Source: a virus
Taxonomy: Duplodnaviria > Heunggongvirae > Uroviricota > Caudoviricetes
Direction: 5' to 3' (one strand)
DNA length: 39,548 bases
IMG/VR virus record: IMGVR_UViG_2519899835_000008
Shown here: piece after piece, positions 8,241-23,196 of the stretch
How positions within the stretch are numbered: position 1 is the first letter of the stretch
Layout: each line of letters begins with the position of its first letter
Made by a program: the position numbers and the translations under genes
The notes under the pieces: generated by a model
Databases searched by the model: none
Seen by the model: only the letters and a program-made list of their open reading frames with translations
Told to the model about the DNA's origin: nothing

Positions 8241-9313
8241 GTGATTTCTCCTACCGTCAGCAGCTCACTGTCTCCCGCCTGAACTGACGTCAGCGGACTG
8301 CGCACTTCAAAATCCTCCAGATTTTTCACCCCTGCCACCGCCCGCCAGAAAGACGACGGCAGAACCAGACCGCCGGGCCGGGATTCGTTATACAACAGGT
8401 CGGTCAGCGCCTGTTTTACGGCCGCCTGATTCTCCGGTGTTTTCGGGATGATCCTGATGCTGAAGGGCACCGGCTTATTGGTCAGTTTAAACACGGTCAC
8501 CGTCGGCCCCAGAGGCTGTCCGACAGGCTGGCCGGTCGCCGGATCATCATGACTGCGGATATAATCCGCCACCCGCTGAACATCACCGTCACCGGGGAAA
8601 ATGTCCGGGTTATTATCCTGAACAAACGTTACCCCCACGCTGCCCGCCTGCGGCCATTCCGGGCGGCACCATGCCCGCGTCACGCCCGGCACTTCACGCG
8701 CCCAGCGTTCAAAATCATACTGCGTGCCGCCGGACGGTGGATTCTGCACCCGGAAAACCAGACGGGAAAGCAGCTCCGGCACGGTTTCCACATCCGCACC
8801 ACCGGTGATCCCCGTTCCGGTCACCGTGGCCGTCTGGTTGATCCCCGCCTGCGGTGTGATAAATGTCAGTTTTGTCCCTGCCGGGGCATTCCCCGCACGA
8901 CCGGCACTTTCGGCTTCCACACTGACATTCAGCGTACCGGCCTTACCGGTCAGGGAGGTGGTGATACGGTAAACCACACCATCACTTCGCTGGAGAAGCA
9001 CACCTTCCTTGATCCCCGCATCCGTGGTCAGCATCAGCTGAACCGGCCCGTCCCCCCGAGAGGCAGGCTTACGCATGACGCCCCAGAATGCACAGTGTTT
9101 CAGCAGTTCGGCTTCATCGGCTTCGGTCGGGATGATCTGACGCGCAATCCAGGCCAGATGCTCATGCTCCTGAGCAGATAACCCTGCCTGAGCGTAAGCA
9201 ATGGCATTCAGGGTGGTTTCATTCACACCCGGCTGCGAGCCGGGCAGGCGCTGGCTGATATCCTGCTGTGTCTGCGTGATTAACTGTGCCAGCGGTAAAG
9301 GCTGATAAGGCAT
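8231..9313 (-). CDS. Baseplate J-like protein (Mu gp47-like)
   Basis: 360-aa ORF in syntenic position; size and position match baseplate J family. Confidence 0.6.
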   Translation of the reverse strand: MPYQPLPLAQLITQTQQDISQRLPGSQPGVNETTLNAIAYAQAGLSAQEHEHLAWIARQIIPTEADEAELLKHCAFWGVMRKPASRGDGPVQLMLTTDAGIKEGVLLQRSDGVVYRITTSLTGKAGTLNVSVEAESAGRAGNAPAGTKLTFITPQAGINQTATVTGTGITGGADVETVPELLSRLVFRVQNPPSGGTQYDFERWAREVPGVTRAWCRPEWPQAGSVGVTFVQDNNPDIFPGDGDVQRVADYIRSHDDPATGQPVGQPLGPTVTVFKLTNKPVPFSIRIIPKTPENQAAVKQALTDLLYNESRPGGLVLPSSFWRAVAGVKNLEDFEVRSPLTSVQAGDSELLTVGEITWL

Positions 9314-21092: not shown

Positions 21093-21269
21093 TCCGGCAG
21101 CATAAGCCGGTGTTTTTCGGGGCCGGTTTTGCGGGACTTCAGAAAGTGCTGACAGGGGAAAAATGAGAAAGGCGCTTCACGCAGATTTTAAAGCCCGTTA
21201 AATACAGGTTAGAAAATCACGACACGCGCCTGAAGAGGGTAAGGCAATGCGTTTGTATACCTTAAACCA

Positions 21270-21743
21270 TTACGGCGTTTCTGTGGCCTTTTTAAAGCGT
21301 TTTCTGATTTCGTCCATGATCTCCTGTTCTGCCACCTGATCAAAGCCCATATACGGACGTGCGCCAATGGCCGCCGGTCCCGGTGGCATACCAGGCAGGC
21401 CACCCCACTGATGAATGGCCGCATAAGGTTCATTTGATCCAATCAGCGCCCAGGTATCGCCATAATCCGTGGTCAGGCGGCGGGCCAGATCGCCGTTCAG
21501 TGTCAGGATTTTGCCGGGCGTGTATCCCTTACGGGTACGCCACTTGCGGTAAGGATCTGACCAGTCATGCCAGCGTTCGCCGTCCGGCTCTTTTTCCTGT
21601 TCAAACGCCATTTCTGACGATGACAGAAGACTCTCCGCCACACTGCGGGCCAGGTCTTTTCCGCCGCCCACAAACTGAAGCCGGGCAAACACCCGCTGGA
21701 GACGCGTAACGTCAACAACGACAGCGGCATCAATGGATGACAT
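21270..21743 (-). CDS. Virion morphogenesis protein (Mu G-like)
   Basis: 157-aa ORF between F-like and I-like genes, matching Mu G size. Confidence 0.6.
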   Translation of the reverse strand: MSSIDAAVVVDVTRLQRVFARLQFVGGGKDLARSVAESLLSSSEMAFEQEKEPDGERWHDWSDPYRKWRTRKGYTPGKILTLNGDLARRLTTDYGDTWALIGSNEPYAAIHQWGGLPGMPPGPAAIGARPYMGFDQVAEQEIMDEIRKRFKKATETP

Positions 21744-21864
21744 ATTGCCTCCGCATAAAGGATGAATATAAAATAAACAGGCGGTCAGTGTACGCTTAAC
21801 TGGTAAAGTCGGTGCCTGCCTCCGGGTGGATCATGTATGCGGGTTCGACCCCCGCCACTGACCG

Positions 21865-23196
21865 TTAATCAATTTGTCCTTCCAGCACCTCAAGCATTCC
21901 GCCCCGGATATCCGATTTCAGCTTATCCATATTGATAACCCGGTAAGCATTCACAATCACATCCAGTTTGTCGGGCTGACGTTTCAGACTGTACGGTGCA
22001 TTAACGGCAATCTGCACACTGCCATCCTGATTTTCCACGATATACATCAGATTGTTGTGCCGTTTGTCCCACAGTACCGCTTTTGGCCTTGCCAGCATTG
22101 CCGGTAAGCGCCCGAAGTCCTCCGGCGTCAGAGCGATGCCGTCATTCTGATGTTTCACACTGTCCGCATGGAGCACATTTTTACCGCTCATCGCCAGCAG
22201 GCGGGCCGGTGGCGTTCCCGTCCGGCTTTCCACTGCCTGCGCAATGCTTTCAGTCATAAAGCCCAGCGTGCGGATATCGTTACCACCTCGCCGGGTCTGC
22301 ATGATGTTTTTTGCCCAGATGCGGAACGCCAGCTGCCGCTCCGGGCTGTTGTTCATCTCCTGAACCACCATTTCCCGTAACGCCGGGCTTTTCACCTCGA
22401 TCAGTTTGCGGATCAGCGCCTGGTCTGTGCCGAACGCTGCCGAGCCGGGGTTATATGACCAGCCCACATCCGGTGTCATGGTTCTGGTGCCATCTGAATA
22501 TGTGGTCACCGGCATTTCTCTGACTTCTCCGGTCTGTTTATCCACGCCAGCCTCAACATTGCGGGTGGAGAGATGATCCTCACCGGATGAAACGGATAAC
22601 CCCATTGCATCCAGACGGGCCTGAGACAATGGCCGCACACGGCAGCGGCAGTTCCAGCCATTGGGCGGGTAGTGTGTTTTCCAGAACGGATCGTCATAGC
22701 GGAATACCAGACCGTTAAGGGCGGAATGCGACGGGCGGGTACGGCTGTCCATGACCGCCACATACTGCCAGAACGGATGCGTGTCCGTGTTGTTCATCAT
22801 CTGCGTGTAACGCCCGGCATTGTAAGCCACACGGGTGTTCACGTTGTAAATCAGCGCCAGACGACGGGGACTGCCCAGCTGCACTTCTTCCGCGTTACCG
22901 TCGCTGTCCACCACAATCTGCTTTCCCCACCATCCCAGCTTTTGCAGGCGTGGCGTCAGCGTGCGGATAAATTCTTTCTGTGAAATCCCCTCATCAATGG
23001 CCCGCTGCACTTCGGCCTGTAATGTGGTCACCACATCCAGCCGTGCCGTTTTTGCTGCCGTGAATGAGCGGGCATGAACATCCGCGGCTGTTTCGAACCA
23101 GTTCCAGCTGATATGCGCCCCTTTGGCGCGGAAGTATGCCACCGTCTCTTTTGAGGGAAGCGTGGCGGCATAACCTAAATCAATCTCCTGAGCCAT
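21865..23196 (-). CDS. Head morphogenesis / minor capsid protein (Mu F-like)
   Basis: 443-aa ORF immediately downstream of and overlapping the portal gene end. Confidence 0.7.
   Translation of the reverse strand: MAQEIDLGYAATLPSKETVAYFRAKGAHISWNWFETAADVHARSFTAAKTARLDVVTTLQAEVQRAIDEGISQKEFIRTLTPRLQKLGWWGKQIVVDSDGNAEEVQLGSPRRLALIYNVNTRVAYNAGRYTQMMNNTDTHPFWQYVAVMDSRTRPSHSALNGLVFRYDDPFWKTHYPPNGWNCRCRVRPLSQARLDAMGLSVSSGEDHLSTRNVEAGVDKQTGEVREMPVTTYSDGTRTMTPDVGWSYNPGSAAFGTDQALIRKLIEVKSPALREMVVQEMNNSPERQLAFRIWAKNIMQTRRGGNDIRTLGFMTESIAQAVESRTGTPPARLLAMSGKNVLHADSVKHQNDGIALTPEDFGRLPAMLARPKAVLWDKRHNNLMYIVENQDGSVQIAVNAPYSLKRQPDKLDVIVNAYRVINMDKLKSDIRGGMLEVLEGQID

Follow-up and report, generated by a model that had tools for sequence, protein, structure and literature searches.

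A tRNA-like RNA without an anticodon arm, tied to the histidine-bearing MuF-C domain of Mu-like head proteins, is a candidate immunity RNA

Introduction

In type III toxin-antitoxin systems, such as ToxIN, a structured non-coding RNA directly neutralizes an endoribonuclease (endoRNase) toxin (PMC8860590); the pseudo-ToxI of phage phiTE and the RNA anti-CRISPRs come from mobile elements and titrate a nuclease by imitating a cellular or defense RNA; and, for pore-forming colicins, a constitutive promoter drives the immunity gene from the opposite strand. To our knowledge, all BECR toxins described so far are neutralized by proteins. The MuF polymorphic toxins have a downstream immunity open reading frame (ORF) (Jamet et al. 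2017, PMC5576092). The domain known as MuF-C has been placed in the PBECR clade, where phage Mu's own copy was called inactive, its orthologs were predicted to be active ribonucleases (RNases), and their targets were left open (Iyer et al. 2017, PMC5512222). Here, we examine a stretch of viral DNA of 39,548 nucleotides (nt) (IMG/VR record IMGVR_UViG_2519899835_000008, Caudoviricetes; hereafter, the window), in which the 121-nt gap between genes G and F holds a transfer RNA (tRNA)-like element on the strand opposite to the late operon. The gene for this RNA is strictly tied to MuF-C domains, at the C terminus of F, that keep their candidate catalytic histidines, and we hypothesize, with a probability of roughly one in two, that the RNA is an immunity RNA, namely an uncleavable tRNA-mimic pseudo-substrate that would inhibit the predicted RNase domain of F.

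In its proposed working, this pair is most like type III toxin-antitoxin systems and MuF toxin-immunity pairs, although its fold, its layout, and the absence of an immunity ORF make it a member of neither. With type III systems, it shares the proposed logic, as well as tandem RNA repeats, the latter in a satellite-like island only; it differs in that (i) the partner has the BECR/MuF-C fold (Pfam MuF_C), and not that of ToxN/AbiQ, (ii) the toxin would be a domain of a virion protein, and (iii) the phage RNA is single, lies downstream on the opposite strand, and has its own promoter, instead of forming a repeat array upstream in the same operon. With MuF polymorphic toxins, it shares a conserved N-terminal MuF domain, a variable C-terminal effector (~80 residues diverge), and a small co-varying gene directly downstream, but this gene is here an RNA, and the C-terminal domain is no appended exotic toxin but the widespread MuF-C/PBECR module. 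The colicin D/E5 tRNases and the CdiA-CT BECR toxins are of the same fold class by Pfam and the literature, and also have a Lys-His in the N-terminal helix, whereas the RNA substrate-mimic inhibitor proposed here would be new for the BECR fold. Reuse of the tRNA "top half" without decoding is familiar from YrlA (a bacterial Y RNA), from the tRNA-like domain of transfer-messenger RNA (tmRNA), and from viral tRNA-like structures; the ends of YrlA lie in its Ro-binding stem and not in an acceptor helix, and we know of none of these RNAs that is linked to a phage head-protein RNase. For pseudo-ToxI and the RNA anti-CRISPRs, the target nuclease is that of the host, whereas here it would be a virion protein of the phage itself. 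Our literature searches found no description of this RNA family, of its link with MuF-C, or of an RNA inhibitor of a BECR-fold RNase; an apparent co-mention of "MuF/tRNA-like" in PMC11662646 was a false lead, caused by the author name Muffly.

Results

The RNA gene is kept and lost with the MuF-C histidines

The RNA gene is strictly tied to a MuF-C that keeps its candidate catalytic histidines, the pair being lost together and diverging together. Relatives were gathered by DNA pattern scans, BLAST, a covariance model built here, and searches seeded with the neighboring protein. A search of viral contigs for the MuF-C domain returned 62 loci, and 44 of these, reaching down to 35% MuF-C identity, were tested for the RNA; in 43, the element lies directly after the F stop codon on the opposite strand (covariance-model scores of 28-94 bits). 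The exception is L091. Its MuF-C domain is ~80% identical to that of L085, a locus with the RNA, but has LMDASSPTS where L085 has LMHADSQKH, and the F stop codon of L091 overlaps the start of G. In a metagenome scan, all three histidine-positive loci have the RNA, and all ten histidine-less loci of the Mu/D108 type are without it. The sequence-only reading that preceded this work had noted the absence of an RNA gene here in Mu, which is borne out by D108 (Muvirus mu record), a phage of the Mu type in which a 7-residue deletion removes both histidines, F and G overlap by 4 nt and leave no gap, and the RNA is absent. Pseudomonas phages MP42, Ember, and CF127b have a degenerate, histidine-less MuF-C; their F and G genes abut, and the covariance model finds no match there. 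The whole tally rests on 61 loci, with the RNA present in all 46 that have the LxHADSxKH motif and in none of the 15 that lack the histidines. The histidine-less lineages include at least two clearly independent losses, namely Mu/D108, and L091 relative to L085.

A distant "RH" subgroup of MuF-C, which has GPKAxRH...SAYR in place of LxHADSxKH and includes stand-alone proteins outside Mu-like phages, is followed by an opposite-strand cloverleaf RNA with a -10 box; some of these RNAs are tRNA-like, others have different loops, and one locus has two tandem copies. With a single RH-subgroup protein as the query, no viral relatives were found. At L099 (2001-2746; also L100 and L101), a stand-alone MuF-C of 156 residues is found in non-phage surroundings, with YbjN and a gene for proline biosynthesis nearby. 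Two tandem cloverleaf RNAs follow it on the opposite strand; in these RNAs, CGGA/UCCG tetrads make the first and third loops complementary, so that an alternative "elbow" may form.

Two of the collected loci showed CRISPR-related features. L102, a metagenome contig otherwise with Mu-like F/G/I genes, has three CRISPR-DR9 repeats (1346-1525; 49-52 bits) that overlap a called "Mu-like_Pro_N" ORF; the assembly may be chimeric, or a CRISPR array may adjoin Mu-like DNA there. At L109, a Methylomonas metagenome-assembled genome, cas2 lies ~500 base pairs (bp) downstream of the G gene that follows the MuF-C gene.

Compensatory changes reveal a conserved structured RNA

The element is a real, conserved structured-RNA gene, beyond chance. 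A pattern scan of genome contigs yielded three loci, and 16 Enterobacterales variants (from Escherichia coli prophage types, Citrobacter braakii, and Edwardsiella anguillarum) showed compensatory changes in 9 of the 18 pairs. The wider set comprised 34 distinct sequences from viral contigs, with GC contents of 0.46 to 0.72. Across these, 95.6% of the helix cells are paired, compared with 38-50% when the 3' partners are slid, and compensatory changes occur in 15 of the 18 pairs (9/9 in the terminal helix, 3/4 in the D stem, and 3/5 in the T stem); none of 500 shuffles reached the observed values. The complementarity first noticed in the window is therefore kept in homologous prophages through compensatory change, which was one of the checks proposed with the sequence-only reading.

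The D stem of the relatives takes forms such as GCUU/AAGU, GGAU/AUUC, and GCAU/AUGC, whereas the GG of the D loop and the UUCRA of the T loop are retained; the tRNA elbow is therefore probably preserved. At the outer end of the terminal helix, the -1:73 pair is G:C in 14, A:U in 11, and G.U in 3 of the 34 sequences, with other combinations in the remaining 6; among the Enterobacterales variants, it is G:C, G.U, or U:A, and the -2:74 pair is C:G, A:U, or U.G. The relatives contain 42 G.U but only 8 A.C pairs, and this excess identifies the + strand of the window as the RNA sense strand, which is the sense used throughout (all coordinates are positions within the window unless a locus is named). 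The middle arm is hypervariable in both length and sequence, with the tetraloops UCCG, UUCG, UCAA, and GUAC and, in some E. coli types, loops of 10-14 nt.

The element is built like the upper body of a tRNA and does not decode

The element is tRNA-like and unable to decode, with a substitute hairpin where the anticodon stem-loop should be. The family covariance model built here (R1) scores 92.6 bits at this place (E=1e-22), and this is its sole significant match in the window. Two features that the sequence-only reading had described, namely a perfect 7-bp acceptor-type helix (GTCAGTG, 21784-21790, with CACTGAC, 21856-21862) and a canonical T arm (GCGGG/TTCGACC/CCCGC, 21839-21855) followed by a C at 21863, can be read directly from the sequence, and the helix is extended to 9 bp by the outer pairs C21782:G21864 and G21783:C21863. 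The same reading had failed to fold a convincing anticodon arm; this stands for a conventional arm, but the region does fold, as the hairpin CUGCC-UCCG-GGUGG (21816-21829), which has a 5-bp stem and a UNCG-type tetraloop.

Like a canonical tRNA (RF00005), the element sets a 7-bp acceptor on a 5-bp T stem, and it has a UUCGA-type T loop, a D arm with G18 and G19, U8, A14, and the arms in cloverleaf order. Unlike a canonical tRNA, it has (i) a variable hairpin, often with a UNCG tetraloop, for the anticodon stem-loop, (ii) a discriminator that is usually paired, within an 8-9-bp helix, (iii) no encoded CCA, as GTTAAT comes after C21863, and (iv) an extra nucleotide after position 9. At -1.8, the single sequence has an unremarkable thermodynamic z-score.

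In a search of 401 nt, the Rfam tRNA model matched over exactly 21784-21863, with 31.0 bits against a threshold of 29 (E=1.1e-4). The alignment spans model positions 1-71 and takes in the acceptor, D, and T arms, whereas the anticodon arm falls outside the match, with 18 model positions skipped and 24 nt in their place. A search of the whole window against Rfam at gathering thresholds reported nothing, and an E-value search of the region gave, besides tRNA, two noise matches only, and hence no other curated RNA family. ARAGORN called no tRNA in the window nor in the 29 related loci scanned, one locus being labeled "tRNA-???". These results agree with the initial view of the element as tRNA-like rather than a working tRNA, and the covariance-model check suggested at the time did return a match.

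Three more specific origins or identities were considered and set aside. A true tRNA with an odd anticodon arm is contradicted by the negative ARAGORN results throughout and by manual trials of 5-bp stems with 7-nt loops, no register of which pairs. A histidine identity (G-1:C73) fits the enterobacterial copies but not the family, in which this pair is G:C in just 14 of 34 sequences and is unpaired in one lineage. Against descent from a host tRNA, a BLAST search of 5,426 E. coli genomes with the gap as the query returned only members of the tRNA-like family; the gap sequence itself was found in 173 of these genomes.

In RefSeq, exactly the interval of the element is labeled "tRNA-OTHER" in many complete E. 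coli genomes. Gap copies with 100% and 96.7% identity have this annotation, and copies with 99.2% identity (1 mismatch in 121 nt) do not; a single substitution appears to switch the call of the annotation pipeline.

A predicted promoter of its own precedes the RNA

A consensus scan found one sigma-70-like site (TTGCCT-18-TAAAAT) ahead of the element. Among the E. coli variants, the -35-like hexamer remains TTGCCT or TTGCCC, although the translation start of G constrains these letters as well. The spacer differs among the E. coli and Citrobacter variants, but every one of them has the same -10 hexamer, TAAAAT. Of the 34 distinct relatives, 33 have a -10 box (TAAAAT, TATACT, or TATAAT) 4-11 nt upstream of the helix, the surrounding spacers being unconserved. 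The sole exception, an Edwardsiella-type element (L070), has a weaker TTAACT 13 nt upstream, and a -10 box is likewise placed in the distant loci L102, L105, L108, and L109. Given this spacing, the primary transcript is predicted to start at, or just before, the terminal helix.

At the other end, one lineage (L074-L083) has an intrinsic terminator directly after the element on the same strand (AAGCCCCG-TTATT-CGGGGCTT plus a T-rich tail), and a Methylomonas contig has a U run after the terminal helix; in the window, where the element runs up to the F stop codon, no terminator is evident. From these signals, we infer that the element is an independently transcribed small-RNA gene with its own predicted sigma-70 promoter. 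An antisense regulator of F or G was considered and rejected, because the promoter fires away from G and one lineage terminates directly after the element. The antisense orientation relative to the late genes, the promoter, and the tie to the RNase-like C-terminal domain of F all go beyond what had been noticed initially.

The C-terminal domain of F is a predicted RNase

F consists of an N-terminal Phage_Mu_F domain (PF04233) and a C-terminal MuF_C domain (PF18819) of ~85 residues, and it is 58.6% identical to gp30 of D108. The isolated C-terminal domain matches Pfam MuF_C with E=3.8e-8, and the His of its "KH" (H35 of the domain) hardly varies among 35 diverse MuF-C relatives. An AlphaFold2 model of the domain had a predicted local distance difference test (pLDDT) score of 80 and a predicted template modeling (pTM) score of 0.76; searches with MuF-C, by Foldseek against the PDB and by profile against PDB sequences, gave no match, and structure comparison lends only modest support to a BECR fold. 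Based on the literature and the motif, we infer RNase activity for MuF-C, which is predicted to be a metal-independent endoRNase with the colicin D/E5-RelE (BECR) fold.

The RNA gene lies in a hypervariable module, with tandem copies in a satellite-like island

Compared with three related E. coli prophages, the window drops to 50-82% identity only at ~21745-22135, between flanks that are mostly 92-100% identical. At the protein level, the same prophages are 95-100% identical in G and 85-100% (mostly at least 93%) in residues 1-360 of F, but only 60-70% in the last ~80 residues. The final ~22 residues (21865-21933), after ..NAYRV, are almost unrelated between otherwise near-identical phages; the tail types are NMDKLKSDIRGG, KKEALLDDLRGG, NKFDIEKAIEGG, and SRNTLIDAVQGG, and the end is always ..LE(L/V)LEG.... 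The type of the RNA hairpin tracks the type of this extreme tail of F. No ORF of more than 32 residues is available in the F-G gap for a protein immunity factor, and the largest ORFs that touch it have 20-32 residues.

Copies of the element also occur without F. An ~8.4-kb satellite-like island, found at two insertion sites, ends in 2-3 tandem tRNA-like copies and has no F gene and no capsid or packaging genes; its genes encode an integrase, a helix-turn-helix regulator, Ash, two Icd-like proteins, DUF4222, a RepA helicase, SSB, PerC, and a Mor-family activator. The tRNA-like copies of the island have U-run leaders and A73, and each of its three copies has its nearest counterpart in a different E. 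coli phage class (90.5%, 82.6%, and 86.3% identity).

Two side observations concern this island. Between mor and the tRNA-like array (L031, ~8860-8960), there are GTGAAA-containing direct repeats (GTGAAAGAAGGTGAAAGAAGGTGATTTTTGTGAAATT...GTGAAATCAGGTGAAAT) that look like replication-origin iterons or activator-binding sites. The last copy of the array (L001 2997-3078; L031 9134-9215) is annotated as "tRNA-Tyr" in RefSeq and is not called by ARAGORN; its anticodon GUA sits in a 4-6-nt loop of a perfect 6-bp hairpin, and the call, probably a mis-annotation, would inflate the tRNA counts of phages and islands.

Features of the locus

The features discussed above are collected in Table 1. Outward of G and F lie the gene for the Mu I protease and the portal gene, one on each side. 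The gap between G and I (21093-21269) comprises 177 nt of non-coding DNA, in which identity to the related prophages dips to 88%. In phage Mu, the strong gyrase site lies between G and I.

Table 1. Positions of the tRNA-like RNA, its parts, its promoter signals, and the neighboring features
Feature	Position	Strand	Description
Whole tRNA-like RNA	21782-21864	+	83 nt; 9-bp terminal helix enclosing D arm, substitute middle hairpin, and T arm; from family covariance model, Rfam, and RefSeq
Acceptor-type helix, 5' strand (positions -2 to 7)	21782-21790	+	Partner 21856-21864; all 9 pairs with compensatory changes, 93.7% of cells paired (34 relatives)
D arm	21794-21809	+	DNA GCTT-AACTGGTA-AAGT, RNA GCUU-AACUGGUA-AAGU; contains G18 and G19; matched by Rfam tRNA model
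Anticodon-arm replacement	21810-21832	+	Core CUGCC 21816-21820, UCCG tetraloop 21821-21824, GGUGG 21825-21829; minimum-free-energy fold
T arm	21839-21855	+	GCGGG-UUCGACC-CCCGC; 100% of cells paired, compensatory changes in 3 of 5 pairs (34 relatives)
Terminal helix, 3' strand	21856-21864	+	"Discriminator" C21863 paired with G21783; abuts F stop codon (complement of 21865-21867)
-35-like hexamer TTGCCT	21745-21750	+	Consensus scan; overlaps complement of ribosome-binding site/start region of G
-10 hexamer TAAAAT	21769-21774	+	Consensus scan; 7 nt upstream of first base of terminal helix
MuF-C domain of F	21910-22158	-	Residues 347-429; predicted BECR-fold (colicin D/E5, RelE-like) endoRNase; proposed RNA partner
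LHADSVKH codons	22150-22173	-	F residues 342-349; candidate active-site Lys-His and upstream His
Hypervariable module	21745-22135		Promoter spacer, tRNA-like gene, and MuF-C-coding end of F; from identity in 60-nt windows
Gene G	21270-21743	-	157 residues, virion morphogenesis; Pfam Phage_tail_S 3e-34; downstream neighbor in late operon
Gene F	21865-23196	-	443 residues, Mu F-type head morphogenesis/minor head protein; Pfam Phage_Mu_F 5e-30, MuF_C 7e-7
Satellite-like island, site 1	L028 16646-24640 (NZ_CP075652.1)		Inserted in mdtP
Satellite-like island, site 2	L031 1327-9216 (NZ_AP042676.1)		Next to tRNA-Ile

Discussion

Co-occurrence suggests that the RNA binds MuF-C: it is probably the RNA partner of this predicted RNase and most likely its inhibitor. 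In the mechanism that we propose, the RNA would fold as the upper body of a tRNA, with an acceptor/T-arm stack, a D arm, and an elbow, and would be dedicated to the MuF-C of the adjacent F. As a pseudo-substrate that keeps the tRNA docking features for the RNase while lacking a cleavable anticodon loop, it would bind and block the enzyme. Being made from its own predicted sigma-70 promoter irrespective of the state of the late operon, it would shield both the lysogen and the cell that produces phage from F, a protein made in bulk late in infection and probably carried in the virion, as well as from F delivered by related superinfecting phages. Inhibition fits four observations: (i) the RNA and the histidines are lost jointly, (ii) the promoter is autonomous and on the opposite strand, as in the immunity genes of pore-forming colicins, (iii) the locus shows local hypervariability, and orphan arrays of the element occur in a satellite-like island, and (iv) the place at which MuF toxins usually have their immunity gene (Jamet et al. 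2017, PMC5576092) holds no gene for an immunity protein. More tentatively, we suggest a two-gene conflict module, present in Mu-like phages and with some stand-alone MuF-C proteins, in which a BECR-fold RNase would be neutralized by an anticodon-less tRNA mimic that is possibly loaded into the virion with F, much as colicins travel together with their immunity proteins, and in which the satellite arrays would disarm several helper or competitor phages at once.

Several observations weigh against inhibition by the RNA. The co-occurrence fits a substrate or a cofactor equally well and cannot separate an inhibitor from these, and the 15 histidine-less loci represent only about four lineages. The catalytic competence of MuF-C is itself uncertain, since this subgroup has an Asn (..NAYRV) where other PBECR families have Ser or Thr. 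The middle hairpin, which was considered as a specificity determinant, is probably none, because it differs between L011 and L018 despite a nearly identical F tail and is nearly absent in L092. Moreover, the hairpin and the F tail are less than 100 bp apart, so that linkage alone could explain why one tracks the other, and the hypervariability could stem from recombination and physical linkage rather than from co-evolution.

The alternative closest to inhibition is a dedicated partnership of another kind, in which the RNA would be a substrate processed to a product, a cofactor or scaffold for the folding of F or its entry into the prohead, or a cargo that is co-packaged and delivered. Strict co-occurrence with the histidine motif, adjacency, and co-variation would all be expected here as well; an RNA-binding role has been suggested even for inactive MuF-C (Iyer et al., PMC5512222), and the RNA gene is embedded among head-assembly genes, as would suit an assembly role. 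An assembly cofactor should not be dispensable, however, and Mu/D108, MP42, and L091 still assemble heads with a histidine-less MuF-C. Furthermore, immunity genes, more typically than assembly cofactors, have a constitutive-type promoter of their own on the opposite strand, and orphan arrays in an island without F are easier to explain as neutralizers; we consider a non-inhibitory partnership the main rival, though clearly less likely than inhibition. A function independent of F is improbable in our estimation. The RNA might then be a general tRNA decoy for a tRNA-targeting nuclease of the host or a rival, or for a tRNA-binding factor, or it might be a chargeable donor for a non-ribosomal reaction, as the conserved elbow and acceptor features are ones that many tRNA-binding proteins recognize, the G-1:C73 of most enterobacterial copies resembles the identity pair of tRNA-His, and the gene has a moron-like autonomy, with a promoter of its own and carriage by the satellite-like island. 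Such a function leaves unexplained why the gene disappears exactly with the MuF-C histidines, in at least two independent cases, and why stand-alone MuF-C genes also carry the RNA; no single amino-acid identity is maintained, since -1:73 is not conserved as G:C.

Lying at the F-G junction of a polycistronic operon, the element could act in cis on the DNA or the late mRNA, as a structure for F-G processing or stability, an attenuator, an antisense regulator of F, or a recombination hot spot; its complement would fold too, and the local mosaicism is compatible with a hot spot. But the ratio of G.U to A.C pairs favors the strand opposite to the mRNA, the -10 box of nearly all lineages and the same-strand terminator of one mean that the transcript need not run antisense into F, and the orphan copies of the island stand outside any F-G context, all of which makes a cis role very improbable. 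We give next to no credence to a decaying tRNA pseudogene or a functionless chance resemblance. Although ARAGORN is negative, the Rfam score is barely above threshold and was obtained in a small search only, and the fold z-score is modest at -1.8, a chance or decaying sequence is contradicted by the covariation, with compensatory substitutions running from E. coli to high-GC hosts while MuF-C falls to 35% identity, as well as by the conserved promoter signals and by the lack of any related host tRNA in the E. coli genomes searched by BLAST.

The element has been visible until now only as an unexplained "tRNA-OTHER" of automatic annotation, and MuF-C has been a predicted RNase since 2017 without a known target or role; pairing the two makes both testable. 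The system is small, namely one RNA and one domain of ~100 residues, and it comes with natural inactive controls (Mu and L091) and natural specificity variants. For annotation, tRNA-OTHER calls or spurious "tRNA-Tyr" calls of this kind should not be counted as phage tRNAs. If the RNA is indeed an inhibitor, it would represent a new way of controlling a colicin-like RNase, through RNA substrate mimicry, and a new class of phage "immunity" genes that gene finders have missed. It would then be the first RNA immunity factor for an RNase of the polymorphic-toxin type, would assign a function to MuF-C, and would explain the arrays of pseudo-tRNAs in the satellite-like island.

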